From Candidatus Kaiserbacteria bacterium (GTDB lineage: Bacteria > Patescibacteriota > Minisyncoccia > Phycocordibacterales > Phycocordibacteraceae), in contig JAPLWH010000026.1 in NCBI GenBank assembly GCA_026396715.1, forward strand, positions 1-43,596: a stretch of DNA of 43,596 nucleotides. The letters run 5' to 3'. Below, piece after piece: positions 162 to 42,523 of this stretch. The number at the start of each line of letters is the position of its first letter. Position 1 is the first letter of the stretch. Under the pieces are notes generated by a model. That model made no database searches. It saw only the letters and a list, made by a program, of their open reading frames with translations, and had not been told where the DNA came from. The position numbers and the translations under genes were made by a program.

Positions 162-1181
162 ATGCGATATCCACGTTCAAAGAAACTCCTATTTGCTAAC
201 AATAAGGGCGGTGTCGGGAAAACAACCCTCGCTTTTAATTGTGCAATGTCGTTTGCAAAAAAAGGATACAAAACAGTACTGATCGATCTTGATCCACAGT
301 GCAATCTCTCTCGACTCGCGCTCGGTGACTTTTTGTACACCGATACGCTATTTTCGCCAACCTACAAAGACATATACGATGTACTGAAGGGCGTCGTAGA
401 AGGTGGATCTGATATTGATATTTCGGTACCCTTTTTGCCGGTCTCGAATAGTGAGGGTAATTTGTTCTTACTCAAAGGCAGCGTGAACCTCTCGCTCTAT
501 GAGAACATTCTTGTAGCTGCGTATGGACAGGCGGCCGCGGGGCAACAACTCGGATATTTTCAGACAAGTGCTATCGATCGTTTTTTGCGCGAGAGAGGAT
601 TACGTGACGAAGTAGATATATTCGTAATTGATACCTCTCCAAGCCTCTCGCTTCTTAATCAGGTTATTTTTCTTGGAGCAGATTATTTTATGGTACCAAT
701 GATGCCTGACGCTTTTAGTGTTCAAGGTATTGAAAACCTTGGTACAGTGTTTGAGAAGTGGAAGCAAAATTGGAAAGTAACCGGTAAGGCTCTTTCTGGA
801 AATACCGAGACAAAATTCGTTCTGGCGGGCGAAGGCTTATTTATTGGATATGTAATAAATGCATACAATGTCTATGGCAAGCAACCTATTAAAGACCATC
901 GCCATTGGATTGAGGAAATTCCTCAGAAAGTGAAAGGTTTCCTTTCTGAAAAACACAGCCGGAATGGTTTGGTTGAGAGAAGTTGGAAAAATCCGCTTGC
1001 AGAAATCCAAGATTATGGAAGAATCCCTGCGAAATGTCAGGAGATTGGAGTTGCAATCTTCGATCTTGATCCGAAGATGATTGATGATATTCACATCGGA
1101 ACAAAAGAAAATATTGAGAAATCCAGAGAAGAATTCGCTCTGCTGGCAGAGAAGATTCTCGAAATACTTCCGAGCTACTAA
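162..1181 (+). CDS. ParA/Soj-family ATPase (orphan, AT-richer than flanks)
   Basis: Deviant Walker A NNKGGVGKTT, LIDLDPQCNLS, and IDTSPSL Walker B region. No parB in the window. Confidence 0.85.
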   Translation: MRYPRSKKLLFANNKGGVGKTTLAFNCAMSFAKKGYKTVLIDLDPQCNLSRLALGDFLYTDTLFSPTYKDIYDVLKGVVEGGSDIDISVPFLPVSNSEGNLFLLKGSVNLSLYENILVAAYGQAAAGQQLGYFQTSAIDRFLRERGLRDEVDIFVIDTSPSLSLLNQVIFLGADYFMVPMMPDAFSVQGIENLGTVFEKWKQNWKVTGKALSGNTETKFVLAGEGLFIGYVINAYNVYGKQPIKDHRHWIEEIPQKVKGFLSEKHSRNGLVERSWKNPLAEIQDYGRIPAKCQEIGVAIFDLDPKMIDDIHIGTKENIEKSREEFALLAEKILEILPSY

Positions 1182-1324: not shown

Positions 1325-4057
1325 GTGCAGGCGGCGTACTATCTCCCCGGCGAAACGCTCAACCCTGCCTGCGCCCCCACGGATTCCGGGTGCGGCATTT
1401 CAAGCATTGTCGCCTCGAGCACTGCCAACAGTATTCCGTACTACGCCGCAAACGGCAGCGTCCTCTCTGCCACCTCGACATTCCAGATACTTTCAAACGG
1501 CACATCCTCGACGACGAATCTCATCGTCGGTAATGCACTCACTATCGGCACGCTCTCGGGTTTTCTGAAAGCAACGGCGGGGGCAGTTGCGACCGCTCTC
1601 GTGAATCTCACTTCAGATGTTACCGGAATTCTTCCAATCATAAACGGCGGCACCGGCCTCTCCGCGCTCTCCGGTAATCAGATTTTGTACACTAATTCCG
1701 CCGGCACCGCTTTCGTGCAAGTCGCCACCTCCTCGCTCTCAATCGGCGGCAACGCCGCCACCGTTACCACCAACGCCAACCTTACTGGCGATGTTACCTC
1801 GACTGGCAACGCCACCGCTATCGGCTCAAACAAAGTGACCATCGGTATGCTCGCCCAAGCGGCCGCCAACACCATCCTCGGAAACTTGACTGGAGCGGTA
1901 GGGAACATTACTGCCTTTGCAACTTCAACCCTCGGTATCGCTCTAGGAGACACTACAGGCACGCTCGCACTCGCTCGAGGCGGTACCGGCGTTATCTCGT
2001 TCACGTCGAATCAAATGCTGTATACGAACGCTGCGGGCGCACTCATCTCCATCGCAACCTCCTCGCTCAACATCGGCGGCACCGCACTTAACATTACTGG
2101 CCTCGCTGCGGTGGCAAACGGCGGCACTGGCTCGACCACGCTCTCGGGCATCTTAAAAGGCAATGGCACCTCGCAAGTCGGCACGCTCGTCGTCGGCACT
2201 GGCCTGATCTATGACGGCACGACGCTTTCCACCAATGGCACAGGCGTTACCTCTCTTGCTGCGCAGTATTCAACTGGACAGACCGGAGGCACCCAAACAT
2301 TTGCAACTTCAACAGCCGACACGAATCTCGGCATGAGTGTCGTTTCAAGCGGCAACATCCACACCTTCACGCCGTACTGGATCGGCACCTTGGCTGACGC
2401 GCGCATAGGAAGCGCGGCAGCGTGGAATGCGAAGCAAGCCGCGCTCTCTTTCATCTATCCGCTCATTAATTCCGCGAATACCATTACTTCCGCCCTCGCC
2501 ACGACCTCGTCCAATACCTGGGGCGGTACCCAAACGTTTACCAACGCTCCCATCCTCGCGGCGCTCTCGGGCATCGTCGGCGTAAATGCCGGCGCGAGCT
2601 ACTCGGTCTCCACGAGCACGCTCAACATCGGCGGCACCGCACTTAACATTACTGGCCTCGCTGCGGTGGCAAACGGCGGCACTGGCGTTGCCGCCATCGC
2701 GCTCGGATTCATTCCATTCGGAAATGGCACGAGTGCGGTCGCGACCTCGTCGAGCTTGTATTGGGACAGCACGAACAGTCGTCTCGGCATCGGAACGACC
2801 TCGCCACTATCGCTGCTCGCGATCGGCGGCGGCGTATCAATCGGCGCGGACTACAACCTCGCGGCACCGACGAACGGTCTCATCGTCGAAGGGAGCGTCG
2901 GTATCGGCACCACGACGCCATGGCGCAATTTCTCCCTCAAGGGCACGGTGTCGTCGCCTCAATTCGCGCTTGCGTACGATGCCACGCGCTACACACAGCT
3001 GCAGACCGACGCGTCGGGCGACCTCTCTATTTTCACTTCCGGCGGCAATACGCGTCTGCCCGACAACAACCTCTTCGTCTGCGCAGGCGGAGCCTGCCCG
3101 ACGCTTTCCATCACCGGCACCGGGAATCTCACGGTCGAGAATAAAATTACCGTCGGTTCGATAGAACAGTTTTGTCCCGCCGGCTACCTCTGGGTGCCAG
3201 GCCTCGCGCAGTACGGCACGCTCCCGGGTTTCTGCACCATGAAATACGAAGCGAAAAACAGCGCCGGCACTGCGGTCTCGGTTCCTGCCGGCGGGCCGTG
3301 GGTTAGCATAGACCAACCCACGGCCCGAGCCGCGTGCGAGGCGCTTGGCACGGGCTATCATCTCATCAATGAGGCGGAATGGATGACCATCGCAACCCAC
3401 ATAGCGACCCTTCCCATCAACGACACTGACACGGATGCCTCTCTGCAGCTTGCTACCGGCCACGGAGACAATGCGCCCGCGAGCGCGCTTGCCGCGGGCA
3501 CGAGCGCGACCGACCCGGTCGTCTCCGGCTGCAATCTTAGCGTTGATATGGAGAATGCCGCAAACGCTTACACGAGCACATGCCAAATCAGAGGCGCGGG
3601 AGCGGGCGGTTCGCTTGATGCCGATAATGGCTATTACGGCACGGGGCAAACGTGGGCAGCCACCGGCTATGTCTCGGGTGCTTCCAATAAGTCGCAGTTG
3701 CGCACCGCCGTCTTGCCGAACGGCACGGTGCTGTGGGATATCGCAGGCAATGTCTGGGAATGGACCGACGCGTATGTGAACGGCACGGCGGAAAAGCCGG
3801 CGGCGGTCACGGACGCTTGGCAGGAATTTAGTGCTATTACCAATTATGCAACTCTTAATTACGCTCGCCCCAAAAATCCTTCATGGACTTCTGCAAACGG
3901 GATTGGTCAATATTATTCCGGTACGGTCGCCGGACAGCGCGCCTTTATCCGCGGCGGGGATTGGGACTACGGTGCGGTTGGCGGCGTATTCACGCTGCAT
4001 CTGTCCGGTGCGCCGTCCAACTCGAGCACGAGCGTCGGGTTCCGCTGTTCCCGGTGA
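1325..4057 (+). CDS. DGR target protein: large Gly/Thr/Ala/Ser-rich surface protein with C-terminal FGE-sulfatase/C-type-lectin-fold domain (true start probably 1248 across the C9 tract)
   Basis: GGTG and GIGTTxP repeats typical of fibre-like surface proteins. The C-terminal domain has CPAGY..FCTMKYEAK, HLINEAEW, DIAGNVWEW, and RGG.W...GFRC at the very end, which is the VR. Confidence 0.9.
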   Translation: MQAAYYLPGETLNPACAPTDSGCGISSIVASSTANSIPYYAANGSVLSATSTFQILSNGTSSTTNLIVGNALTIGTLSGFLKATAGAVATALVNLTSDVTGILPIINGGTGLSALSGNQILYTNSAGTAFVQVATSSLSIGGNAATVTTNANLTGDVTSTGNATAIGSNKVTIGMLAQAAANTILGNLTGAVGNITAFATSTLGIALGDTTGTLALARGGTGVISFTSNQMLYTNAAGALISIATSSLNIGGTALNITGLAAVANGGTGSTTLSGILKGNGTSQVGTLVVGTGLIYDGTTLSTNGTGVTSLAAQYSTGQTGGTQTFATSTADTNLGMSVVSSGNIHTFTPYWIGTLADARIGSAAAWNAKQAALSFIYPLINSANTITSALATTSSNTWGGTQTFTNAPILAALSGIVGVNAGASYSVSTSTLNIGGTALNITGLAAVANGGTGVAAIALGFIPFGNGTSAVATSSSLYWDSTNSRLGIGTTSPLSLLAIGGGVSIGADYNLAAPTNGLIVEGSVGIGTTTPWRNFSLKGTVSSPQFALAYDATRYTQLQTDASGDLSIFTSGGNTRLPDNNLFVCAGGACPTLSITGTGNLTVENKITVGSIEQFCPAGYLWVPGLAQYGTLPGFCTMKYEAKNSAGTAVSVPAGGPWVSIDQPTARAACEALGTGYHLINEAEWMTIATHIATLPINDTDTDASLQLATGHGDNAPASALAAGTSATDPVVSGCNLSVDMENAANAYTSTCQIRGAGAGGSLDADNGYYGTGQTWAATGYVSGASNKSQLRTAVLPNGTVLWDIAGNVWEWTDAYVNGTAEKPAAVTDAWQEFSAITNYATLNYARPKNPSWTSANGIGQYYSGTVAGQRAFIRGGDWDYGAVGGVFTLHLSGAPSNSSTSVGFRCSR
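2064..2131 (+). repeat. Exact 68-bp internal direct repeat, copy 1 (copy 2 at 2619-2686)
   Basis: Identical 68 nt encoding LNIGGTALNITGLAAVANGGTG in both places. Confidence 0.95.
2619..2686 (+). repeat. Exact 68-bp internal direct repeat, copy 2
   Basis: Identical to 2064-2131. Confidence 0.95.
3940..4055 (+). repeat. DGR variable repeat (VR)
   Basis: 116-nt ungapped match to 4605-4720 with 14 mismatches, every one opposite a TR adenine. Encodes the last 38 residues of the target. Confidence 0.97.
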
Positions 4058-4101
4058 TTCCCGTAAGCACTATGAAATGCTTTCTGCCATCGCTCGCTCA
4101 T

Positions 4102-4127
4102 AAAAGAAAAATTCTGATTTTTCTTTT
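4102..4127 (+). other. Hairpin/cruciform downstream of VR (candidate DGR target-recognition element)
   Basis: AAAAGAAAAAT-TCTG-ATTTTTCTTTT: perfect 11-bp stem with 4-nt loop, ~45 nt after the target stop codon. Confidence 0.6.
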
Positions 4128-4219
4128 TGTCGCGCTCGCTCGGCAGTAGAACTTTGGTATGGATACTTTGAAACTTTGGCTTCCGAAAAAAATTATAAAA
4201 ACGCTCACTTCACGCGCCT

Positions 4220-4594
4220 ATGTTCGAACAACTTCCAATATTCGAGAAGACATACCAGATTATCCGCTGGCTCTATCCGACCATCAACAAGTTCCCGAAG
4301 TCCCAGCGCTTCGTGCTCGGACAGCAGATAGAGAACACAGCTCTTTTGATACTGACGGGCATCATTGCCGCCAACGGCGAGCGGGACAAGGTGCCCGCGC
4401 TCAAGCGCGTGAGCACGCTGCTCGACACACTGCGCATCCTCATCCGGCTTTCCAAAGACCTCGGGTTCATAAGCGTGAAGCAGTATGTGTTCGCCGCCGA
4501 GCGCGTAAACGAGATCGGGAAGATGCTCGGCGGATGGATGAAGCAGTCGGCTTCCTCCGCGCCCACGCCGGTCCGTGGGCAGGGCCGCGTCTAG
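4220..4594 (+). CDS. avd: DGR accessory variability determinant (Avd, four-helix bundle)
   Basis: LPIFEKTY...KFPKSQRFVLGQQIE...LRILIRLSKDLGFI...EIGKMLGGW signature; located between target and TR/RT. Confidence 0.92.
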   Translation: MFEQLPIFEKTYQIIRWLYPTINKFPKSQRFVLGQQIENTALLILTGIIAANGERDKVPALKRVSTLLDTLRILIRLSKDLGFISVKQYVFAAERVNEIGKMLGGWMKQSASSAPTPVRGQGRV

Positions 4595-4604
4595 ACACAG
4601 CTCT

Positions 4605-4720
4605 CGCCTTTATCCGCGGCGGGAATTGGAACAACGGTGCGATTGACGGCGTATTCACGCTGAATCTGAACAATGCGCCGTCCAACACGAACACGAACAT
4701 CGGGTTCCGCTGTTCCCGGT
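4605..4720 (+). ncRNA. DGR template repeat (TR)
   Basis: Non-coding copy of VR between avd and RT. It has 26 adenines, including 9 AAC/AAT codons in the VR frame. Confidence 0.97.
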
Positions 4721-18808: not shown

Positions 18809-18915
18809 GCGAGCGGCAGTGCAATTTCAGAGTACAGCGTGATTTTCTGCTGAAAATCCGCTTCGCTCTCGCGCCGTCGCGCTGCGAGAGCCTCTGAAAT
18901 TGCACTGCCGCTCGC
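18809..18915. repeat. 107-bp Y-shaped inverted-repeat element (24-bp perfect outer stem, two inner hairpins)
   Basis: 18809-18832 is the exact reverse complement of 18892-18915. Inner stems are GATTTTC/GAAAATC (18841-18858) and GCTCTCGC/GCGAGAGC (18865-18891). Confidence 0.85.
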
Positions 18916-18962: not shown

Positions 18963-20900
18963 TCATGAAAGAGCTTCAACGATATGCGCGAGTGATGCGG
19001 TCGCGACGCCGATGACCTTGTCGGCTGCGCCATAGTAGAGGAAGAGCGTATCGCCGCCTGTCCCGAGCGGAGTCGAGGGGCGGACGACCGTGCCGCAGGA
19101 GAAGACGACGTTCGCGACCTCGCCTTCTTGCTCATACTTTTCCAACGGTTCGAAGATCGGGTCGGCAGTGCGGGCGAGGACTACGGTGCCGGATGGGTCG
19201 ATGAGCGCGGCGCCGAGGCGGTACTTGCTGTGGCGCGAGACGCCGTGGTAGATCATGAGCCAGTTATCGCCGATTCTGATCGGCGGCGCCGCGACGCCAA
19301 CTTTTGCTCCGTCCCACATGCCGCGGCGTGGCGTCATGATCTCAATGCAGCGACTCGCGCGTTTCCCCGAGATGAGGTCGGGTAAGAGGTCGGCGCAGAT
19401 CTGGTTATTGATGCGATGGTAGAGTAGATAGTTCCCATCAATTTTTTCAGGCAGGAGCGCGAGATCTTTATCATCCACGTTTTCGAGGGTCAACAGAAAG
19501 GGTGTGCTCCAGCGATCGAATCGCCGCGCGAGGAAATCATCGACGCGTATCGATGAGATCGCGCCGGAGGGCGCACGGACGCCGTCGTAGGCCGTGTAGG
19601 TCATGTACAGTGTGTCGCCGATGCGCACGATGCGCGGATCTTCGCAGCCGGAGTTACCGGTGGGAGTGCCGCGCTTCATTTCAAAGCTTTCGCGCGGCGC
19701 ATAGATAGGTTCCGGCAGGCGTTCGTCGATGGATACGCCATCTTTTGAGATAGCGAGGCCGATGGTCGACGTGTTCAGTGCGTCCATCGCGCGATACAGG
19801 ATGTATATCGTTCCTTCGAGCTCGATTGTTGCGGCATTGAAGACACTCTGGCTTTCAAAGCCCGTGCCTCGCGGCGTAAGGATCGGATTCTGTGTCGCGC
19901 GCGTGAAGGTGCGGGCGATTTGTTTTGGGTCGAGTGCGCGCAAGAGGTCGGACCGCTTCACATTTGCTTTGGCGCATACGGTATCCGCCCCACCATACCA
20001 AATCTCAAATTGGTCAGCGTTTACGGTCACACTTGTTGGGAAGACGATGTGTGGCACGAGGCCGTACTCTTCGTAGATCTCTTGGGGCACGAGGATGGAT
20101 TCGGTGCGCGATATGAGTTTCTGCGGATTTTCGAGAGTAAGCAGTGCCGCTTCTACTGAGAAGATACGGTCGCGTTCATGGTAATAGTTCTGGATGTAGG
20201 AATAGACGAGTAGCCAGCCTGCGTCGGTCTTGAGTGGGGTGGCGCCGACCTCGATATGGTCACCGTCGTCACGTCGCAATTCATCGAGTGCGTGGTCGGC
20301 GAGATTATTGTGCCATTCGTGCCAGTATTCGGGATCGAAAAAGTCCTCGACTTGTTTGGCGCGTGCAAGTGCGATTGTCGGGCGCGGATGCTCCGCCGTC
20401 CAATCGGTGTGTGCGGTTAAAAGGAGGACGACATCACCGTTCACGCGTTCAGGGAAGAGTGTTGCGGCTTTCGCATTAAAGGGCGTGATGAGGTGCCGCT
20501 CGGTAAAAGCATCAGGCGCGTCGCCGACGGCGACGGCAACTTTTATATTGTCGGGACCGAACGGCCAGCCGCCGAGCGCGGTATAGAAACAGTACCAGCG
20601 GCCTTCAAAGAGGGTTACTCGTGGATCTTCGCAGCCGAACGTGTCCCAGGACTCTTTCGGCACGATGACCTGGCGCCGCGAGTGGAAATGTATGCCGTCT
20701 TCTGAAAATGCACTGCCGACACTCGAAAGTCCTGCTGTCGGCGTCTGAAGCGCATCCGGGTTTCCGAGTGCGCGATAAAACAGGTGCACGCCGTCTTTGG
20801 TGCGAACAACCGAAGGGTTAAATGTCGCAATCGATTCCCACGGGCGCTCGCGTTGCGGCGAGAGGAGCGGATTATGCGATTCTCGGCGGATGACGAACAT
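18963..20900 (-). CDS. Tandem two-domain GH130-like glycosidase/phosphorylase
   Basis: Two repeats of NP.L.P...WE....FN, GCEDPR, and VVFxxG...YYGxADxV. Confidence 0.85.
   Translation of the reverse strand: MFVIRRESHNPLLSPQRERPWESIATFNPSVVRTKDGVHLFYRALGNPDALQTPTAGLSSVGSAFSEDGIHFHSRRQVIVPKESWDTFGCEDPRVTLFEGRWYCFYTALGGWPFGPDNIKVAVAVGDAPDAFTERHLITPFNAKAATLFPERVNGDVVLLLTAHTDWTAEHPRPTIALARAKQVEDFFDPEYWHEWHNNLADHALDELRRDDGDHIEVGATPLKTDAGWLLVYSYIQNYYHERDRIFSVEAALLTLENPQKLISRTESILVPQEIYEEYGLVPHIVFPTSVTVNADQFEIWYGGADTVCAKANVKRSDLLRALDPKQIARTFTRATQNPILTPRGTGFESQSVFNAATIELEGTIYILYRAMDALNTSTIGLAISKDGVSIDERLPEPIYAPRESFEMKRGTPTGNSGCEDPRIVRIGDTLYMTYTAYDGVRAPSGAISSIRVDDFLARRFDRWSTPFLLTLENVDDKDLALLPEKIDGNYLLYHRINNQICADLLPDLISGKRASRCIEIMTPRRGMWDGAKVGVAAPPIRIGDNWLMIYHGVSRHSKYRLGAALIDPSGTVVLARTADPIFEPLEKYEQEGEVANVVFSCGTVVRPSTPLGTGGDTLFLYYGAADKVIGVATASLAHIVEALS
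19062..19079 (-). repeat. REP-like motif inside tandem GH130 gene
   Basis: CCCTCGACTCCGCTCGGG-ACAGG; peptide VVR-PSTPLGTG-GDTLF. Confidence 0.8.
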
Positions 20901-20903
20901 AGG

Positions 20904-22082
20904 TCAGGTCGTCCGCGTAGGGCTTATCGCGATAAGCGAAGGCTGGCTTCCCTCGACGAGGGCGTCGAGAAATGTTTCAAGCGGCGTGGTCGCGACGCAG
21001 ACGACCTTGTCCGCGCCGCCATAGTAGACGAAAAGCGTGTTATCGCCTGTCCCGAGCGTAGTCGAGGGACGCACGACGGCGCCGCAGGCGTAGACGATGC
21101 CCGGTTTGCCGTGATTCTCATAGCGCTCGTCGGGAGAGAGTACTGGCGCTGCGGCGCGATGAATCACCTTCGTCGGGTCATCGAGATCGAGCAGCATCGC
21201 GCCGAGCTTGTAGCGATTCGGCTCTTCCGGATCCATCGCGTGGTAGAAGACGAGCCAGCCGCGCGGGGTCTTGAGCGGCGGCGGGCCGGCGCTGCGCATC
21301 CGGTGATGCCAGGCGATTTGCGCGTCCGGCATCTGGTGCGGATCAGGGCTCGTGAATTTCATCTGCGCGAGCTCGGCGAGGTCGTCGGCGTATTCGATGC
21401 GCACGCGGGCGGCATCGTCGCCGATGATGCTGTGCAGGATGGCGAACTGCCCGCCAATCTTTTCGGGGAAGAGCACCCAGTTTTTATCTCGCGTACCGTG
21501 CGAGAGTATGATCGGACCTTCCCATCTATCGAAGCGCTTTGCAAGAAAATCTGCTTCGCTCATCGAGATGACGGCGACGCGAAGCATCCAATTCTCGAAC
21601 ATGTTGAAGGTAACGTATACACGCCCGTCGATCGCTACCATACGCGGGTCTTCACAGCCGCCCCAGCTGCCGCCCGAAGGGTACATGACGGGAGAGTAGT
21701 GCCGCAGATGAGCGGCGACCTTTTGCGGATTTCGTGCGACGTAAGCGGGATAGGGGGGTCGCTCATCAAAAACGAGGCCGTCCGGACTGCTCGCGTAGCC
21801 GAGCCGCGAGACGCCGTCCATGCCGATGGCGCGATACACGAGGTGCGTCCGGCCGCCGAGTACGGCGGCCGCCGGATTCAAGACCGCCTCCGCGGTCCAA
21901 GGATGAGTTCCCGGCTGGAGGATAGGGTTGTGTGCGGATTTTGAAAGCAGCAGACGTTCGAGATGCAGAATCTCGATAAGCTTCGTACGAATCGGTTTTG
22001 AAAATGCGGCACCAAGAACCGCTCCGATGACGAAGAAGGAAAAGAGCAGTGCGATGATGTTTACCGCGAAAGGGAAACTCAT
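20904..22082 (-). CDS. GH130-like glycosidase with N-terminal TM anchor
   Basis: N-terminal hydrophobic helix; AVLNPAA, GGCEDPR, KNWVLFPEKI, and YYGGADKV. Confidence 0.85.
   Translation of the reverse strand: MSFPFAVNIIALLFSFFVIGAVLGAAFSKPIRTKLIEILHLERLLLSKSAHNPILQPGTHPWTAEAVLNPAAAVLGGRTHLVYRAIGMDGVSRLGYASSPDGLVFDERPPYPAYVARNPQKVAAHLRHYSPVMYPSGGSWGGCEDPRMVAIDGRVYVTFNMFENWMLRVAVISMSEADFLAKRFDRWEGPIILSHGTRDKNWVLFPEKIGGQFAILHSIIGDDAARVRIEYADDLAELAQMKFTSPDPHQMPDAQIAWHHRMRSAGPPPLKTPRGWLVFYHAMDPEEPNRYKLGAMLLDLDDPTKVIHRAAAPVLSPDERYENHGKPGIVYACGAVVRPSTTLGTGDNTLFVYYGGADKVVCVATTPLETFLDALVEGSQPSLIAISPTRTT
21051..21068 (-). repeat. REP-like motif inside single GH130 gene
   Basis: CCCTCGACTACGCTCGGG-ACAGG; peptide VVR-PSTTLGTG-DNTLF. 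Confidence 0.8.
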
Positions 22083-37924: not shown

Positions 37925-37929
37925 GTGTG

Positions 37930-38001
37930 CTCCGCGGGTAGGATTCGAACCTACGACCAACTCGTTAACAGCGAGCCGCTCTACCACTGAGCTACCGCGG
38001 A
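37930..38001 (-). tRNA. tRNA-Asn (GTT), CCA not encoded
   Basis: Acceptor stem TCCGCGG/CCGCGGA, D-loop AGCTCAGTGGTAGAGC, anticodon loop CTGTTAA, and T-loop GGTTCGAATCC. Confidence 0.96.
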
Positions 38002-38081: not shown

Positions 38082-38432
38082 ATGGTAACAATGATGAAGG
38101 TCTGTACGAAACATGGTCAGACAAAACATTTTCCGCGGCCCGATAGTGCTTTCCGGTGTGGAAAGTGTGCCTCGGAATGGGTTATGGACCATAGGCGCCG
38201 CAAGAAAGAAAAGCTCGTTGAAATGTTTGGAGGGAAATGTGCCGTATGCGGATACAAAAAATATGTGGGCGCGTTAGATTTCCACCATACGGACCCAAAA
38301 ACAAAGGCTTTCGCTTTGAGTGTAAAGGGGCTGTCGTATGCGTGGGACTCTCTTTTGCAAGAAGCAAAGAAATGCGTTTTAGTCTGCAAGAACTGTCATA
38401 CCGAGATTGAGTCCGGTATTACAACGCTCTAG
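38082..38432 (+). CDS. HNH-endonuclease-like Zn-finger protein next to tRNA
   Basis: CxxH/CxxC, GGKCAVCGY...ALDFHH.DP...KCVLVCKNCHTEI. Confidence 0.8.
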   Translation: MVTMMKVCTKHGQTKHFPRPDSAFRCGKCASEWVMDHRRRKKEKLVEMFGGKCAVCGYKKYVGALDFHHTDPKTKAFALSVKGLSYAWDSLLQEAKKCVLVCKNCHTEIESGITTL

Positions 38433-39174: not shown

Positions 39175-40539
39175 TCATTTCGAAAAATCCGCGTATGCCA
39201 TCTCGCGCTTGCCCTCGGGGATGACGCGCTCGATGGTGAATTGACCGTTTGCGAGTGACGCTTTGACTATCTTCATGCGTTTTCCTCCGCCAGCTGGCGG
39301 ATCGAAAAAATACGTACCGATGGTGTCGGCGTACGCGCGATACTTGTACCAATTCTCTTCGGCAGGCGCATCGAGCGAGAGCAGGCCGTCTTCTTTTTTG
39401 AGTTTCCCAGCGCGTGTTGCGTGCGCGTGTTCTTGTGGGACGGGAATGATGTCGCCCGAGAGGTAGGCAGGAAGTGTTTCGACAAGCAGTGCTGCGCCGA
39501 TCTCTATGAGTCGCGGGCGCAGTTCGCGCGCAGTTTCGCCGGGTGCGATCTCTGTTGCTTCTTGTGCGAGGACGTCGCCCGCATCAAGCTCTTTGACCAT
39601 TTTCTGCAGGCTCACGCCGGTCATCGTGTCGCCTGAAAGCAGTGCCGTCTCAAGTGGTGTCGCGCCGCGGTATTTTGGCAGCAGGGAATAATGCACGTTG
39701 ATGACGCCTTTCGGAAAGGCGCGTATTAGTGTTTCGGGAAATATTTTTCCATACGCGACGACGACTGCGTATTCGCATTCGTAGGCGGTGATCGCCTCGA
39801 TTGCCGCCGCATCGAGTTTTTCGGGAGTCATGACTGGAATGTCATGCGCAAGTGCGAGCGCTTTCGTCTCAGAAGGCGTGAGTACGAGGCCGCGACCCCG
39901 CGGCGCGTCGGGAGACGTCACGACAACAGCGGGCACGAAGCCGCTCTCTATGAGTGCGGCAAGCGTTTCGCTTGCGACGCCCGGCGTACCGAAATACGCG
40001 AAGCGATGCTCTGACCGGTGGGAGACGCGCGTGAGGTGCTCGGCATGATCGATGAAGAGAATGCCGTTCAAGTGATCCATCTCATGTTCGAATATCTGCG
40101 CCATGAGGCCGCCGGCACCGCGCTCAAAGGGCGTGCCGGTAACGTGTCGTGCTTTGATCGTGACGCGCTCGTGACGGCTCGTCGTGCCGTAGATGCCGCG
40201 CACCGAGAGGCAGCCCTCGTCCACGAATGCGCGCTTGCGGGAAGTTTTCAGGATTTCGGGATTGAGGTAGACATCGACTTCCGGCGGAGGCGGCGGAGGA
40301 AGTGTCTCGCCCGCTACTTTTCTCTGAAGGGGGAGTGTGCGGTCCTTCCGTACGATGAAGATGCGATAGGACATGCCAATTTGCGGCGCAGCGAGCGCGA
40401 CGCCTTCGGGCTGCTCTTCAAGCGCTTCGGACATGTCTTTGATGATCTGCGCGAGCTTGGGCGTGTCGAAAAGCCCGTCGGGTACGGGCTGAGCGATTTC
40501 GCGCAGTACTGGCGCGCCGTCTTGCACGATCTCTTTCAT
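39175..40539 (-). CDS. def-fmt: Peptide deformylase / methionyl-tRNA formyltransferase fusion (454 aa)
   Basis: N-half has GVALAAPQIG, EGCLSV and HEMDHLNG (PDF). C-half has FGTP, VVTSPDAPRGRG and NVHYSLLPKYRGATP (Fmt). No stop between the halves. Confidence 0.92.
   Translation of the reverse strand: MKEIVQDGAPVLREIAQPVPDGLFDTPKLAQIIKDMSEALEEQPEGVALAAPQIGMSYRIFIVRKDRTLPLQRKVAGETLPPPPPPEVDVYLNPEILKTSRKRAFVDEGCLSVRGIYGTTSRHERVTIKARHVTGTPFERGAGGLMAQIFEHEMDHLNGILFIDHAEHLTRVSHRSEHRFAYFGTPGVASETLAALIESGFVPAVVVTSPDAPRGRGLVLTPSETKALALAHDIPVMTPEKLDAAAIEAITAYECEYAVVVAYGKIFPETLIRAFPKGVINVHYSLLPKYRGATPLETALLSGDTMTGVSLQKMVKELDAGDVLAQEATEIAPGETARELRPRLIEIGAALLVETLPAYLSGDIIPVPQEHAHATRAGKLKKEDGLLSLDAPAEENWYKYRAYADTIGTYFFDPPAGGGKRMKIVKASLANGQFTIERVIPEGKREMAYADFSK
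39286..39301. repeat. 16-bp perfect palindrome inside the fmt domain
   Basis: TCCGCCAGCTGGCGGA, encoding D-PPAGG-G. Confidence 0.65.
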
Positions 40540-40652
40540 CCCGTTAGAAATAGGACGCGGACGCGCAGGCAAAGCCGCCGCCGAACCCTATTTGATTAGA
40601 GTTGATAATTGAACCCGTCTCTCGGTTGAGGCGTCCGCGATTTCTAACGGGA
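40539..40652. mobile_element. MITE-like element copy 1 (114 bp) at the def-fmt start codon
   Basis: 13-bp perfect TIRs TCCCGTTAGAAAT/ATTTCTAACGGGA, inner 9-bp IR, and TTCA direct repeats at 40535-40538 and 40653-40656. Confidence 0.75.
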
Positions 40653-40690
40653 TTCATGTGGCGAACTATACCAAAAAATTAGCGCGGTGT

Positions 40691-40828
40691 GTGCTTGGTC
40701 GGGTCCAGTTCCCACCCCGTGAGATAGCCGCAGACGGCATCTCACGGGGCGAGACTCATTGCAAAAGTATCCGCACAGTTATTGGAAATTTTATCTGGCT
40801 TCGTGCTTGGTCGGGTCCAGTTCCCACC
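40691..40828. repeat. 26-bp direct repeat (40691-40716 and 40803-40828) with an intervening hairpin (40715-40749)
   Basis: GTGCTTGGTCGGGTCCAGTTCCCACC occurs twice; the hairpin is CCCCGTGAGAT...ATCTCACGGGG. Confidence 0.85.
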
Positions 40829-41084
40829 AGAATTTTTTGCCGAAGTTTTTTGCCTGGCTGCAGATGCTCTTCAGATAGTAGAGGTCCTGCGTCGGTATTT
40901 TTTCGAGGACGCTGCCGAGGTGCGCCATAGTCATGGGCGCGAGCCCGTCTTTGGTGCGCGAGTGATTCAGGTGGCGCAGGAAGAAGCGCATCATCTCGCC
41001 ACGCTCGGTCTGGCGCTTCCTTCCTTTGGGTGCCGCCGCCGCTTTTCGTTCGAACTCGGGAAGCATCTCGCCGATTGATTTCAT
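40791..41084 (-). CDS. Hypothetical protein (97 aa)
   Basis: MKSIGEMLPEF...DLYYLKSICSQAKNFGKKFWWEL; co-oriented between murA and def-fmt. Confidence 0.75.
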   Translation of the reverse strand: MKSIGEMLPEFERKAAAAPKGRKRQTERGEMMRFFLRHLNHSRTKDGLAPMTMAHLGSVLEKIPTQDLYYLKSICSQAKNFGKKFWWELDPTKHEAR

Positions 41085-41203
41085 CCCGTTAGAAATAGGA
41101 CGCGGACGCGCAGGCAATGATGCGTCCGAACCCTATCCGATTATGGCTGGTAAGCGAACTCGTCTCACGATTTTCACAGAAGCGTCCGCGATTTCTAACG
41201 GGA
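41084..41203. mobile_element. MITE-like element copy 2 (120 bp) at the start codon of the 97-aa gene
   Basis: Same TIRs and TTCA flanks (41080-41083, 41204-41207). 39 nt at the left and 27 nt at the right (counting flanks) are identical to copy 1. Confidence 0.75.
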
Positions 41204-41212
41204 TTCATAGCA

Positions 41213-42523
41213 TTAACCAGTGTGCGCTTCGATCGAGGCGCCGAGTTGTTGCAGGCGATGCACGATGTCTTCGTAGCCGCGGTTGATGCTGTAGACATTG
41301 CGCAGCATCGAGCGGCCCTTCGCGCCGAGCATTGCGACGAGAATGATAGTCGCGGGTCGCAGTGCTGGCGGACAGATGAGTTGAGCCGCTTTGAGTCTTG
41401 TCGGGCCTTCGATCGAGATGCGGTGTGGGTCGTGCAAGCTGGTATGCGCGCCGAGACGATCGAGGTCGGTGTAGTAGATCGCGCGCTTTTCGTAGACCCA
41501 ATCGTGAATGAGGGTCGTGCCTTTCGCTTGCGTCGCGATGACGGCGAAGAACGGGAGATTGTCGATATTGAGGCCGGGGTACGGACGCGCATGGATCTTT
41601 TCTGGAAATGCGACGAGAGTTGAGGGCTTGATCGAGATGTCAGCGAGCTTCGTGATGCCGTTTTCTGACATGCGGGATTTTGAGAGCTTGAACTGCAAGC
41701 CCATTTTCTCAAGGATGAGCAGCTCAACTTCGAGGAATTCGATCGGCGCAGCAAGGATGGTAAGTGGGGAATGAGTTACCGCTGCAGTCGCGATGAAGAA
41801 CATCGCGTCGGTCGGGTCCTCTGCGACGCTGTAGGAAATATCTTTCTTGATGCTAGCGACACCCGTGACCGTGAGTGTCGTCGAGCCGATGCCTTCGACC
41901 GAGACGCCGAGCGCGCGCAAGAAGCCGCAAACTTCCTGCACTTGGTAATTCGCCGAGGCGTACTTAATGACGCTCGTGCCGCGTATGCGCGCGGCGGCAT
42001 AAAGCGCATTGATGGTCGCGGTGTCGCTCGATTCGTACAAAATGACTTCTGCTGGCACGAGCGTCTCGTGTGTGATGCGGTAGCTGTCGGAATGCGCTTC
42101 GATGTTGACGCCGAATTTCTCGAGCGCCATGAGGTGCGGGCGCGCGGAGCGGAGTCCGAGCGTGCAGCCGCCGGACTGCGGCAGCTCGAAGCTCTTGAAG
42201 AGGTGGAGCAGGGGGCCGATGAACATCAGGATGCTGCGGGTCCGCGCCGCTGCGGCGCGGTCGATCGTTTTGAGCGAAATCTTTTCGGGCGGAGTTATGA
42301 CGACGCTTGCGCCCTGCCACTCGACCGAGACCTTGAGCGAGCGCAGCACTTCGATGAGGCGATTGACCTCTTCGATCTTCGGCATGTGCTCGAGCGTCGT
42401 CGTCCCGCGGTTGAGGAGCGAGGCGGCGAGGAGTGCGACCGCGCCGTTTTTCGAGCGGCTCGTTTCGACTTTCCCGGAAAGCTTTTTACCGCCCTCGATG
42501 ATGAAATTCATTTCGCCTTGCAT
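41213..42523 (-). CDS. murA: UDP-N-acetylglucosamine 1-carboxyvinyltransferase
   Basis: SKNGAVALLAASLL, GGCTLG.R (catalytic-Cys loop), YPGLNIDN.P, and RGYEDI. Confidence 0.88.
   Translation of the reverse strand: MQGEMNFIIEGGKKLSGKVETSRSKNGAVALLAASLLNRGTTTLEHMPKIEEVNRLIEVLRSLKVSVEWQGASVVITPPEKISLKTIDRAAAARTRSILMFIGPLLHLFKSFELPQSGGCTLGLRSARPHLMALEKFGVNIEAHSDSYRITHETLVPAEVILYESSDTATINALYAAARIRGTSVIKYASANYQVQEVCGFLRALGVSVEGIGSTTLTVTGVASIKKDISYSVAEDPTDAMFFIATAAVTHSPLTILAAPIEFLEVELLILEKMGLQFKLSKSRMSENGITKLADISIKPSTLVAFPEKIHARPYPGLNIDNLPFFAVIATQAKGTTLIHDWVYEKRAIYYTDLDRLGAHTSLHDPHRISIEGPTRLKAAQLICPPALRPATIILVAMLGAKGRSMLRNVYSINRGYEDIVHRLQQLGASIEAHTG

Follow-up and report, generated by a model that had tools for sequence, protein, structure and literature searches.

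Start-codon repeat units in a Kaiserbacteria genome as probable MITE-like derivatives of a small GIY-YIG nuclease element

Two short units were found on the start codons of def-fmt and of a gene for a 97-aa protein in a stretch of 43,596 nucleotides (the window) from a Candidatus Kaiserbacteria bacterium. The units are probably ORF-less MITE derivatives of a GIY-YIG element of about 280 bp that lies on start codons, with the host genes translated by termination-reinitiation. The larger element appears to be widespread in Patescibacteria, to form a very large family and to be undescribed. The anatomy of the units, their insertion relative to empty sites, the distribution over the start codons of many genes, the autonomous partner, the conservation of the hairpin and the open frame are established by sequence comparison. 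No published description of the element was found in full-text literature searches, which did not cover subscription-only papers; the sequence-only reading had recognised no described family of this design.

The units measured 114 and 120 nt end to end, and both possessed perfect 13-bp terminal inverted repeats and a flanking TGAA duplication (Table 1). In copy 1, the final A of ATTTCTAACGGGA is the A of the rebuilt ATG. The sequence-only reading had described two loci with such repeats and a terminal A that rebuilds ATG, an upstream ATG 7 nt after a -10 box (copy 1) or 4 nt after the murA stop (copy 2), and open frames of 37 and 39 aa that end in TAA 4 nt before the rebuilt ATG. The repeats were correct to the base, and the upstream starts and the coordinates of the frames were confirmed. 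It had also noted diverged interiors with a net 6-nt difference, and the alignment showed a single 6-nt indel, with a mean column identity of 84% over the aligned stretch including flanks. The homology of the two copies begins exactly at ATGAA and stops at ATGAAA, and the flanks are unrelated.

Table 1. Positions in the window of the two units, their host genes and the neighbouring signals.
Feature	Position	Strand	Remark
def-fmt fusion (peptide deformylase + Met-tRNA formyltransferase), host of copy 1	39175..40539	-	PF01327, PF00551 on homologues
97-aa gene, host of copy 2	40791..41084	-	
murA stop TAA	41213..41215	-	Followed by TGCT, then the original ATG of the 97-aa gene
Extended -10 box TGGTATAGT, putative def-fmt promoter	40665..40673	-	Inferred, not mapped; 7 nt before the original ATG
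Copy 1, original ATG + left TGAA (ATGAA)	40653..40657	-	ATG 40657-40655, TGAA 40656-40653; sequence
Copy 1, left terminal inverted repeat TCCCGTTAGAAAT	40640..40652	-	Sequence
Copy 1, inner-stem 5' arm CGCGGACGC	40631..40639	-	Folding; compensatory changes among relatives
Copy 1, conserved interior motif AATAGGGTTCGG	40581..40592	-	Subfamily comparison
Copy 1, inner-stem 3' arm GCGTCCGCG, then 4-nt bulge TCCT	40552..40564	-	Folding
Copy 1, right terminal inverted repeat ATTTCTAACGGGA	40539..40551	-	Holds the leader stop TAA; sequence
Copy 1, right TGAA	40535..40538	-	Rebuilt ATG 40539-40537 = def-fmt start; sequence
Copy 1, leader ORF, 37 aa	40544..40657	-	Original ATG to TAA 4 nt 5' of rebuilt ATG
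Copy 2, original ATG + left TGAA	41204..41208	-	ATG 41208-41206; sequence
Copy 2, left terminal inverted repeat	41191..41203	-	Sequence
Copy 2, inner-stem 5' arm CGCGGACGC	41182..41190	-	Folding
Copy 2, interior motif GATAGGGTTCGG	41126..41137	-	Subfamily comparison
Copy 2, inner-stem 3' arm + TCCT bulge	41097..41109	-	Folding
Copy 2, right terminal inverted repeat	41084..41096	-	Sequence
Copy 2, right TGAA	41080..41083	-	Rebuilt ATG 41084-41082 = start of 97-aa gene; sequence
Copy 2, leader ORF, 39 aa	41089..41208	-	Ends TAA-CGGG-ATG as in copy 1

The 13-mer of the inverted end occurred four times in the window, always at the two units. With at most two mismatches allowed, five matches were obtained compared with 0.87 expected, and none of 100 shuffles reached five; the fifth match, at 16039, has two mismatches, lies within coding sequence and looks like chance. 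The leader ORFs were the sole ORFs of the units and had no family match, and tblastn of the nuclease consensus revealed no GIY-YIG gene in the window. The Rfam search of the whole window at the gathering score returned a tRNA-Asn only, and the search of 40300-41500 at permissive thresholds gave chance-level matches only (E >= 1.5). The GGGTTCGG motif was considered as possibly tRNA-like and this idea was abandoned; ARAGORN found tRNA-Asn at 37929-38001 only.

Nearly all of 120 Def-Fmt orthologues have the N-terminus MKEIVQDG, which identifies the downstream ATG as the true def-fmt start. The 97-aa gene had no match in Pfam or NCBIfam, and its position between murA and def-fmt is kept in relatives. 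Four of these relatives (L003, L204, L205 and L206, with Def-Fmt identities of 75-86%) possessed clean empty sites, ATGAAAGAG and ATGAAATCA, with a single ATGAAA at each. The empty def-fmt site consists of the -10 box, 7 nt and ATGAAAGAG, and the extended -10 box with equal spacing is present in L003, L205 and L206. At the empty 97-aa site, the murA stop is followed by ATGAAATC, which in L003 reads TAA-TGCT-ATGAAATC; the identity of murA is supported by its orthologues in all four relatives, which carry PF00275 (EPSP_synthase, the family of the MurA domain). As read from the sequence, the murA TAA-TGCT-ATG junction is the geometry of native translational coupling. In L002, a relative with 94% identity, both sites were filled. 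Empty sites in relatives, the check that had been proposed for an insertion, were thus found at both genes.

The more distant relative L001 carried a unit of about 280 bp with near-identical ends, TCCCGTTAGAGAT and ATCTCTAACGGGA, at the same def-fmt site. Its ORF encodes an 86-aa GIY-YIG (UPF0213/SLX1-like) nuclease (PF01541, E 5.1e-18, 65.6 bits compared with the cut-off of 22.6), the sole gene of full-length members. The termini of this protein, MNPVRD... and ...RFLSLTG, are encoded by the inverted ends themselves, and the TGA stop overlaps the rebuilt host ATG (ATGA) at L001 def-fmt. Clustered at 90% identity, the homologues fell into more than 3,400 groups; since nearly all of them end in ...RFLSLTG and the forms of 93-95 aa begin with M[NSGI]PVRD, both nuclease termini are encoded by the inverted ends. 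At least 537 tblastn-confirmed places were obtained in the species-representative genome collection. In addition to L001, about 50 other full-length units were collected; these units measure about 280 bp, have TCCCGTTAGAGAy at their ends and contain a GIY-YIG ORF. The ends table comprised 80 genome loci. Such GIY-YIG ORFs are often mis-named 'excinuclease ABC subunit C' in source records.

In an alignment of 31-32 nuclease sequences, Y3, Y5, Y16-T17-G18, R24/R26 and E62 were invariant and N76 was at least 90% conserved. The Tyr, Arg, Glu and Asn positions are presumably catalytic, by analogy with I-TevI and UvrC. The AlphaFold2 model had a pLDDT of 87.9, and its top Foldseek matches were UPF0213 1zg2, Slx1 6sei/7cq3/4xm5 (TM-score about 0.6) and I-TevI 1ln0, with weak E-values of 1.5e-3 and above. 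The best sequence and fold matches belonged to the UPF0213/SLX1 branch (1zg2, 1ywl, 7wme, 6sei, 7cq3 and 4xm5). According to PDB entry titles, Slx1 cuts branched DNA. Such an activity would suit the hairpin- or cruciform-forming ends of the element by analogy, and structure-specific cutting by its nuclease is untested. The mobility of the elements and the role of the GIY-YIG protein as the mobility nuclease are inferred. To our knowledge, none of the insertion-sequence families uses a GIY-YIG nuclease, and we know of no mobile-element role for UPF0213 proteins. Furthermore, an 86-aa catalytic domain without a DNA-binding domain is an odd transposase, which counts against the mobility reading.

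The sequence-only reading had suggested a search for an autonomous transposase with the same ends. A partner exists; it encodes a GIY-YIG nuclease, not a classical transposase, and its ends are one nucleotide off. The inverted ends in the window read AGAAAT, while all full-length T...A copies found read AGAGAT or AGAGAC, and the exact autonomous partner of the window copies was therefore not found. Action of the nuclease in trans is assumed because the window contains no GIY-YIG gene. No relatives were confirmed in viral contigs, which were considered as a possible vector for cross-phylum spread. The units have the structure and distribution of MITEs, with mobilisation inferred: they are small, have no transposase ORF, possess terminal inverted repeats, show a duplication with empty sites, occur at many loci and share ends, to within one nucleotide, with a partner. 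The claim of a non-autonomous element is supported by the empty sites, the many loci and the autonomous partner. An IS200/IS605 derivative was rejected: the repeats are terminal, duplications other than TGAA match on both sides, the sole ORF is GIY-YIG, and there was no Rfam match (TnpB-associated RNA included).

The distribution was investigated by a pattern scan that yielded at least 120 metagenome stretches. The scan required intact ends and may thereby be enriched in copies maintained by selection. Of the 118 collected T...A units, 107 (91%, ORF-less units included) adjoined a start codon with an ORF behind it. Under a strict start criterion, the proportion was 53%, compared with 3.9% of 13,383 control TGAA sites (binomial p about 5e-56). 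The units lay at the starts of 88 target-gene clusters, including pyrG-, topA-, ychF- and rplB-like genes. The matching duplications other than TGAA were TGGA, TGAG, TGCG and TGG. At L044, L038 and L042, the left copy is GTG or TTG and the right copy is ATG, which indicates that the A of the rebuilt ATG comes from the element. Random insertion positions, which would have refuted the proposed preference, are not what was observed. Local duplication of an ordinary 5' UTR was rejected as well, given the unrelated flanks, the empty sites and the 88 unrelated target genes.

Preferential location does not by itself mean targeting. It remains a substantial possibility, though one we would lean against, that the element recognises only about 4 nt (TGAA) and that copies last where the terminal A rebuilds the gene and host selection freezes the element, with insertions away from starts being lethal or quickly decayed. 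The target logo showed nothing beyond ATGAA, the sister type with C...G ends shares the core of the ends and yet lies mostly in intergenic spacers (with TAAA, TCAA or TGAA duplications), and the search demanded intact ends, all of which agree with survivorship. It is harder to reconcile with the 91% of copies at starts, ORF-less ones included, with the orientation bias (34 forward to 2 reverse), and with the rough estimate that neutral intergenic TGAA should outnumber ATGAA gene starts. Moreover, intact-ended C...G copies persist off starts, so intactness alone fails to explain the start bias. For the claim that the element inserts at start codons, even those of essential genes, the location (107 of 118 units, 88 genes) therefore stood, and targeting could not be told apart from TGAA specificity plus survival; active targeting and survival at the sole tolerable TGAA sites cannot yet be separated.

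The leader frame was free of stops in 28 of 53 ORF-less copies, compared with 46 of 265 control frames (about 9/53 each, p 2e-7). In the subfamily of the window, it was open in 22 of 25 copies compared with 26 of 125 control frames (p 2e-10). Among subfamily copies with an ATG-to-ATG distance of 3n+1 or 3n+2, in which the frame can end beside the host ATG, all 21 of 21 were open; the distances in the window copies were 118 and 124 nt (3n+1). Because of the relatedness of the copies, these statistics are not fully independent. In L002, a nested insertion of 162 nt left the frame open, with an ORF of 93 aa and the same TAA. The conservation of the frame that had been predicted thus held in the window's subfamily (21/21), and about half of the ORF-less copies elsewhere stop early. 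These early stops (25/53 copies, mostly of other, AT-rich subfamilies) indicate that coupling is not the only rescue route. In-frame fusion to the host gene was seen in 1 of 53 ORF-less copies. An insert of the type of Rickettsia palindromic elements (RPE), in frame with the host protein, was rejected on this fraction, the 3n+1 distances and the end of the leader before the host ATG.

In an orthologous pair, the leader had 9 non-synonymous substitutions and 1 synonymous substitution. The frame is kept open without a conserved peptide, as the shell of the nuclease reading frame, and the suggested portable leader peptide did not hold up. A leader peptide or attenuator was rejected on these substitutions (9/10 non-synonymous) and on the absence of the unit from four close relatives. 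The broader idea of a domesticated regulatory leader (leader peptide, attenuator or structured 5' UTR), or of a local 5' UTR duplication, is very improbable and largely refuted. The hairpin buries the host AUG, so that host output could depend on leader translation; such a leader would still have to account for the clean empty sites in relatives with 75-86% Def-Fmt identity, the 88 unrelated genes that bear the unit, the unconserved peptide, the lack of an Rfam match and the unrelated flanks of the two copies.

Long hairpins were predicted for copies 1 and 2, with energies of -53.2 and -51.6 kcal/mol and z-scores of -5.2 and -4.5, respectively. The stem comprises a 14-bp helix and a helix of 6-9 bp. 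In the consensus hairpin, the A of the left TGAA pairs with the U of the rebuilt AUG, and compensatory changes were found at five pairs. No conserved structure was detected in the interior, and Alifold supported the two terminal helices only. The def-fmt transcript is inferred to be leaderless from the position of the -10 box, 7 nt before the original ATG. A very stable hairpin that begins only 5 nt downstream of an AUG at the 5' end would be expected to impede leaderless initiation, barring co-transcriptional ribosome loading, and this counts against the favoured reading. Among occupied starts, 43 of 89 had a -10-like hexamer 5-9 nt upstream, compared with 9% of random ATGs, and just 6 of 89 had a Shine-Dalgarno-like sequence.

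A stem of 14-bp and 6-9-bp helices with about -50 kcal/mol could also be cut by RNase III or a similar enzyme, leaving a near-leaderless host mRNA and making translation of the leader incidental. RNase III-type removal is the usual fate of non-intron insertions in rRNA genes. Half of the ORF-less copies stop early, yet their host genes look functional. In the nearest literature, the GIY-YIG ORFs of CPR rRNA genes sit within insertions that are neither introns nor homing-like (PMC11270868), which also speaks for processing. We nevertheless consider this explanation unlikely, as it does not account for the finding that 21/21 frames are open, for lengths of 118, 121 and 124 nt, for the nested insertion that is open as well, or for the avoidance of in-frame fusions. 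In addition, a few nucleotides would remain ahead of the AUG after a cut in the stem, and leaderless initiation works poorly on such an end.

Still less likely is an outward promoter inside the ORF-less copy that re-transcribes the host gene, as Correia elements can. Copy 2 contains a promoter-like sequence, GTGAGA-17-CATAAT (41168-41140), and, as we read the alignment, the conserved AATAGGG motif is directly preceded by a -10-like yTAAT. In 18 of 25 subfamily members, TAGG is located 41-51 nt (about 45 nt) 5' of the host ATG; in both window copies it is out of the leader frame (ATA GGG). The copy 2 promoter is a consensus match only and copy 1 falls under the scan threshold; the resulting 5' UTR would lack a Shine-Dalgarno sequence, and the conservation of the frame would have no explanation. 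The sigma-70 scan flagged only this weak site inside copy 2; the extended -10 box upstream of def-fmt was passed over for want of a -35 match.

In the favoured model of termination-reinitiation, insertion would duplicate 4 nt, usually TGAA, that is the TG of the start codon and the next two bases, and the 3'-terminal A of the element would recreate the host ATG. The host promoter and original start codon would then feed ribosomes into the element. In full-length copies, the host-fed frame or an internal ATG may yield the nuclease, whose TGA overlaps the rebuilt start. In the ORF-less window copies, the frame would be open merely as a conduit, with TAA in the right inverted end. A translating ribosome would melt the hairpin of about -50 kcal/mol that otherwise buries the host AUG, terminate beside this AUG and re-initiate, so that def-fmt and the 97-aa gene could be expressed without a Shine-Dalgarno sequence of their own. 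This rescue of the host genes is inferred, without experiment, transcript or ribosome data. A wider proposal, for which our confidence falls somewhat short of even, is that the units of about 280 bp represent an unrecognised class of prokaryotic transposable element, mobilised by a structure-specific, SLX1-like minimal nuclease acting on the hairpin or cruciform ends of the element; such an element would lack a promoter and ribosome-binding site because it lives on host starts, where it would use the initiation signal of the host, rebuild the ATG and return the ribosome by termination-reinitiation, and the window copies would be ORF-less members selected for ribosome read-through.

Several known systems share features with these units. 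Correia elements (CREE/NEMIS, MITEs of Neisseria) have a similar size (about 100-150 bp), inverted repeats, a short duplication, many copies, hairpin-forming transcripts and positions beside genes with effects on expression. They are intergenic, with a TA duplication and 26-bp ends, and no autonomous partner is known to us. The present unit, in contrast, duplicates TGAA on a start codon, rebuilds ATG with its end base, is traversed by an open frame and has an autonomous partner that encodes a GIY-YIG nuclease. RPEs are likewise palindromic selfish DNA within genes that is tolerated through translation. They are inserted in frame and translated as part of the host protein, whereas the present unit precedes the protein, with a frame whose stop lies 4 nt 5' of the host ATG or overlaps it.

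The I-TevI/Seg homing endonucleases also place a GIY-YIG catalytic domain in a selfish element, and the fold of I-TevI is one of the closest matches. Homing enzymes, however, contain DNA-binding domains and act on a long site within a single cognate gene; they spread through repair that uses homologous flanks, and no duplication results. The present 86-aa protein is the catalytic domain alone, and a homing endonuclease gene was rejected on the 88 target genes, the shared target of about 5 nt and the 4-nt duplication. SLX1 differs in that it serves in repair and acts together with a partner protein. In coupled gene pairs (ATGA, termination-reinitiation), the upstream stop either overlaps with the following ATG or precedes it by 4 nt, and the native murA/97-aa junction shares the TAA-4 nt-ATG geometry with the unit. 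The difference is that the upstream frame of the unit comes from an inserted parasite, whereas in an operon it belongs to a partner that has co-evolved. Self-splicing introns and inteins likewise are selfish DNA inserted into essential genes, and they undo the harm that they cause. Introns are removed from RNA and inteins from protein, while the present element stays in place and occupies the one place where a 3-nt rebuild and a ribosome hand-over suffice.

If this reading is true, it would assign both a function and a way of life to one of the commonest tiny GIY-YIG ORFs in Patescibacteria, and would add a nuclease type absent from known insertion-sequence families. For annotation, it would mean that gene callers produce false N-terminal extensions (MPARPRPISNG-MK...) or nuclease-host fusions. 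With the occupied genes, leaderless initiation and 70S re-initiation could be studied on natural examples in hard-to-culture bacteria. Moreover, it would reveal a new strategy of selfish DNA in very compact genomes, in which start codons of essential genes (def-fmt and the pyrG-, topA- and rplB-like genes among them) are occupied and payment is made by translational relay. Under the wider proposal, the element would add to introns and inteins a third means by which selfish DNA can reside in essential genes without harm.

The minus strand was re-read from 40300 to 41500 with coordinates checked base by base, and every detail in the sequence-only reading was confirmed: two units with perfect inverted ends, a TGAA repeat, an open leader frame and a rebuilt ATG. 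Copy 1, on the start of def-fmt, reads ...TGGTATAGT-TCGCCAC-ATGAA-[TCCCGTTAGAAAT ... ATTTCTAACGGGA]-TGAA-AGAGATCGTG on this strand, and copy 2, on the start of the gene for a 97-aa protein, reads murA...TAA-TGCT-ATGAA-[TCCCGTTAGAAAT ... ATTTCTAACGGGA]-TGAA-ATCAATCGG. The two copies aligned from ATGAA to ATGAAA and nowhere beyond, with a mean column identity of 84% (flanks included) and a single 6-nt indel accounting for the difference in length. The 13-mer inverted end occurred four times in the 43.6 kb window, always as an element end. In both copies, the TAA of the leader frame, which is entered at the original ATG of the host gene, lies 4 nt upstream of the rebuilt ATG. Moreover, each unit folded into one long hairpin, at -53.2 kcal/mol (z-score -5.2) in one and -51.6 kcal/mol (z-score -4.5) in the other. 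Its terminal helix of 13-14 bp is followed by a 4-nt bulge on the 3' side (TCCT) and an inner helix of 9 bp (CGCGGACGC/GCGTCCGCG), and its interior is variable. No Rfam family matched either unit. The consensus hairpin showed compensatory changes at 5 pairs, and in it the U of the rebuilt AUG was paired with the final A in the left TGAA; therefore, the host start is buried at the hairpin base.

The host gene of copy 1 encodes a peptide deformylase/Met-tRNA formyltransferase fusion, with homologues named Patescibacteria, Paceibacterota or Candidatus Kaiserbacteria. Of the 120 best Def-Fmt homologues, nearly all begin with MKEIVQDG, which identifies the rebuilt ATG, the downstream one, as the true def-fmt start. 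One homologue, P0016, had a false N-terminal extension ending in ...FPISNG-MKEIV; this corresponds to the right inverted repeat translated in the host frame, and it was a pointer to a related insertion. From a TTG, the 3' part of each window unit could also be read in the host frame as MPARPRPISNG-MK..., so that gene callers can add a false 11-aa N-terminal extension to both host genes; that of P0016 was a 34-aa version.

The murA/97-aa gene/def-fmt locus was compared in six relatives. Both sites were empty in L003 (75% Def-Fmt identity), L205 and L206 (81%), and L204 (86%). The empty def-fmt site was TGATTTTTTGGTATAGTT(C/T)GCC(A/G)C-ATGAAAGAG in L003, L205 and L206; in L204 the def-fmt ATG was likewise empty, but an unrelated insertion occupied the -10 box. 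The empty site of the 97-aa gene consisted, in all four, of the murA stop, 1-24 nt and ATGAAATC. In L002 (94% Def-Fmt identity), orthologous copies filled both sites, and the insertions of the window lineage are therefore derived and recent. They were clean, consisting of the element and 4 nt of duplicated target. L002 also had a second element nested in its copy 2 orthologue, and the leader frame there remained open (93 aa) with its TAA stop unchanged. In every relative, an extended -10 box lay 7 nt upstream of the def-fmt ATG, from which it is inferred that the def-fmt transcript is leaderless. For the 97-aa gene, the native arrangement is coupling to the murA stop.

The def-fmt promoter region was also an insertion hot spot for further small palindromic units, each rebuilding the signal that it splits, as observed in L001 (a relative with 72% Def-Fmt identity; GCA_023267775.1) and L204. 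The CCCCGTGAGAT end of the L001 units is similar to the CCCCGTTAGAGAT end seen in the C...G type, one of two end types of the element. In addition, the 3' end of the 97-aa gene carried a 112-nt insertion in the window and L002, absent from L003, L204, L205 and L206, which brings a replacement C-terminus (...HEAR-stop), the old one (...HTPR-stop) being a downstream relic. Elsewhere in the window, a 107-nt unit is probably another small palindromic mobile element, and a 116-aa ORF adjoining the only tRNA gene may be another small nuclease-type selfish gene. The long direct repeats D1-D3 look like repeated domains within large ORFs.

Coordinates of the features in the window and in the loci of its relatives
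Feature	Location	Strand	Details
Leader frame, copy 1	window 40657-40544	-	37 codons, upstream ATG to TAA in far inverted repeat
Leader frame, copy 2	window 41208-41089	-	39 codons, upstream ATG to TAA in far inverted repeat
Interior motif, copy 1	window 40581-40592	-	(A/G)ATAGGGTTCGG
Interior motif, copy 2	window 41126-41137	-	(A/G)ATAGGGTTCGG
TTG-opened host frames	window 39175-40572, 40791-41117	-	
Nested element	L002 246-412		162 nt; TAAAA duplication
Two tandem units	L001 952-1082		~65 nt each, CCCCGTGAGAT...ATCTCACGGGG; ends CCCCGTGAGAT...ATCTCA(C/T)GGGG; in -10 box between GGTATA and GT; TATA duplication each, rebuilding TATAGT
-10-box unit	L204 2155-2243		~80 nt; ends CTCAGCACTAACCGA and TCGGTTAGTGCTGGG; same -10 box position; unrelated to L001 units; TATA duplication, TATAGT rebuilt
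112-nt insertion	window 40691-40828	-	at 3' end of 97-aa gene
112-nt insertion	L002 about 750-905		at 3' end of 97-aa gene
26-nt direct repeat	window 40828-40803, 40716-40691	-	GGTGGGAACTGGACCCGACCAAGCAC, exact; flanks the 112-nt insertion; first copy = last codons, WWELDPTKH
Perfect 11-bp hairpin	window 40749-40715	-	CCCCGTGAGAT-N13-ATCTCACGGGG, between the 26-nt repeats
107-nt unit	window 18809-18915		perfect 24-bp terminal inverted repeats GCGAGCGGCAGTGCAATTTCAGAG / CTCTGAAATTGCACTGCCGCTCGC, 59 nt between
116-aa ORF	window 38082-38432	+	CxxC pairs; weak HNH match (PF01844, E 4e-4)
tRNA-Asn	window 37929-38001	-	only tRNA gene in window
Long direct repeats D1-D3	window 1600-2760, 3940-4720, 18996-21100		100-116 nt, 84-88% identity, 555-1989 nt apart

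At the same def-fmt ATGAA, L001 carried a unit of ~280 bp with the ends TCCCGTTAGAGAT and ATCTCTAACGGGA and an 86-aa ORF matching Pfam GIY-YIG (E 5e-18), whose TGA stop is the TGA within the rebuilt ATGA. More than 3,400 homologues of this nuclease were found in the protein collection, the great majority of Patescibacteria lineages, and the motif residues were invariant. Nearly all homologues end in ...KNRLKRFLSLTG; here the right inverted repeat is read as CGT TTC CTA TCT CTA ACG GGA TGA. The 93-95-aa forms start with M[N/S/G/I]PVRD, encoded by the host ATG, two bases of the target and the left inverted repeat. These conserved termini indicate that the inverted repeats double as the coding ends of the nuclease and that its ORF can start on the host start codon. 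Accordingly placed ORFs, in frame from the host start, were present in 21 of 39 full-length copies, and 16 had an internal ATG start. By an AlphaFold2 model (pLDDT 88) and the sequence profile, the protein is closest to UPF0213 proteins (1zg2, 1ywl), followed by Slx1 and, third, the catalytic domain of I-TevI. Among 1.84 billion representative proteins, a profile search detected 3,200 matches at E <=1e-10 and 16,469 at E <=1e-3. No nuclease gene was found in the window, nor was any autonomous partner, meaning a nuclease-encoding unit, found with the exact AGAAAT ends of the window copies.

Nuclease relatives of 60-70% identity with the same core ends also occurred in non-Patescibacteria metagenome-assembled genomes (L013, L027, L029, L033-L036, L039, L047, L049, L051, L060, L062, L072, L078, L079 and L082), labelled Thermodesulfobacteriota, Omnitrophota, Planctomycetes, Clostridia, Nitrospirota, Gammaproteobacteria and, in one case, Woesearchaeota. 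Wide horizontal spread is suggested, or else some binning errors. The viral contig collection yielded no nuclease relative.

Elements were gathered in two ways, both ignoring the flanks: 80 genome loci were obtained via the nuclease protein, and at least 120 metagenome loci via the 12-nt core of both ends 80-110 nt apart. The stretches retrieved from a single 594,792-bp Patescibacteria contig, CAVXAH010000001.1, contained four full-length matches, one with a disrupted frame, and several ORF-less copies. Two end types were recognized, T...A (TCCCG...CGGGA) and C...G (CCCCG...CGGGG). Among the matches listed, the T...A set comprised 118 units, about 50 full-length and 68 without the nuclease ORF. 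The proposal that the element resides at start codons, made from two copies, held for this wider set, since a start codon and an ORF of >=60 aa directly followed 107 of the 118 listed units (91%) and other copies were thus not at random positions; three of the 11 exceptions were the first member of a tandem pair or at a contig end. A strict test required the left copy to be a start codon without a preceding one in frame; 63 of the 118 listed units passed it, versus 3.9% of the 13,383 TGAA sites from the same DNA that served as controls (p about 5e-56). The occupied genes formed 88 clusters among the matches listed, including pyrG-, topA-, ychF-, rplB- and atpA-like genes, as judged by N-terminal sequences. 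Copies were almost always nuclease-sense relative to the host gene (34 versus 2 in the opposite orientation). The C...G type was mainly outside Patescibacteria, in intergenic spacers, often a few nt upstream of a ribosome-binding site or ATG, with TAAA, TCAA or TGAA duplications.

The target logo was A81 T86 G78 A80 A87 before the element and T G A84 A88 after it, with no signal further out. ATGAA starts only 26% of long ORFs in the element loci, so the preference for TGAA is real and adds to the start-codon context. It remains unresolved whether insertion is directed to start codons or whether these are merely the only TGAA sites at which an insertion is survivable. The target duplication is genuine, and non-TGAA duplications with both sides matching were also found (TGGA, TGAG, TGCG and TGG). 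In three loci (L044, L038 and L042) the left copy was GTGAA or TTGAA and the right copy ATGAA; the A of the rebuilt ATG thus comes from the element. Tandem copies (L017, L035, L056 and L133) are expected if insertion recreates its target. Furthermore, a -10-like hexamer lay 5-9 nt upstream of 43 of 89 occupied starts versus 9% of random ATGs, and a Shine-Dalgarno-like sequence was present at 6/89; the host genes are predicted to be mostly leaderless or translationally coupled.

The leader frame was analyzed in 53 distinct ORF-less copies of the T...A type located at gene starts, among the matches listed. It was stop-free across the interior in 28, compared with 6-12 for each of five control frames (pooled 46/265; p = 2e-7). 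Nineteen of these open frames ended at a TAA 4 nt before the ATG, 8 at an ATGA overlap, and 1 was fused to the host gene. The subfamily of the window, defined by an inner helix of the CGCGGACGC type, had 25 copies among the matches listed, with an interior identity of about 60% and lengths clustering at 118, 121 and 124 nt. The frame was open in 22/25 copies of this subfamily (versus 26/125 control frames; p = 2e-10); in the other subfamilies, half of the ORF-less copies had early stops. In all 21 subfamily copies with an ATG-to-ATG distance of 3n+1 or 3n+2, the frame ran without interruption to a stop adjacent to the host ATG, and early stops were present in 3 of the 4 copies of 3n distance, which would fuse to the host protein. 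Since the right inverted repeat has stops in two of three frames, TAA (...TTC TAA CGG G) and TGA (ATGA), a ribosome outside the host frame terminates <=4 nt from the AUG. Copy 1 differed from its L002 orthologue at 10 nt, 9 of them non-synonymous. The leader peptide, as predicted from these sequences, is not conserved, and selection therefore appears to act on ribosome passage and not on the product.

An interior motif was also conserved, with its TAGG core 41-51 nt upstream of the host ATG in 18 of the 25 subfamily members and a -10-like yTAAT just upstream of the motif in many. Because the leader frame reads ATA GGG, the TAG is out of frame in both window copies. The function of the motif is unknown; it could be a binding site for the nuclease or a host factor, or part of a promoter.

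As far as sequence comparison can demonstrate, the family is a multi-copy element with inverted repeats that was inserted with a 4-nt duplication and has an autonomous GIY-YIG partner. It resides at start codons, rebuilds the ATG with its terminal A, and has conserved a hairpin and an open frame without a conserved peptide. In the proposed mechanism, the host promoter and start codon would load ribosomes onto the element frame, on the leaderless def-fmt mRNA or, for the 97-aa gene, by coupling to murA. On full-length copies these ribosomes would make the nuclease. The translating ribosome would open the hairpin, stop at TAA-CGGG-AUG or AUGA, and re-initiate on the host AUG. This hand-over is inferred, without experimental data, and initiation at a 5'-terminal AUG should be hampered by a stable hairpin 5 nt away, unless ribosomes load during transcription. 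In view of the early stops in the other subfamilies, stem processing or an internal promoter may also operate besides the hand-over. That the nuclease moves the element is assumed, and structure-specific cutting, as suggested by the SLX1-like fold of the model and the hairpin ends, is speculation.

The window units met every sequence-level criterion of a MITE. They failed those of a homing endonuclease gene, an IS200/IS605 derivative, an RPE-like in-frame insert and a leader-peptide regulator. Full-text literature searches turned up no report of a GIY-YIG element occupying start codons. GIY-YIG ORFs in CPR rRNA genes have been reported within non-intron insertions, with behaviour unlike that of homing elements (PMC11270868), and those insertions may belong to the same family as the present elements. 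The feature in the window is rated here as a MITE that combines a new niche with a new, inferred rescue trick and a partner nuclease of a new type, and the autonomous family may deserve the status of a new class once its mobility is shown.
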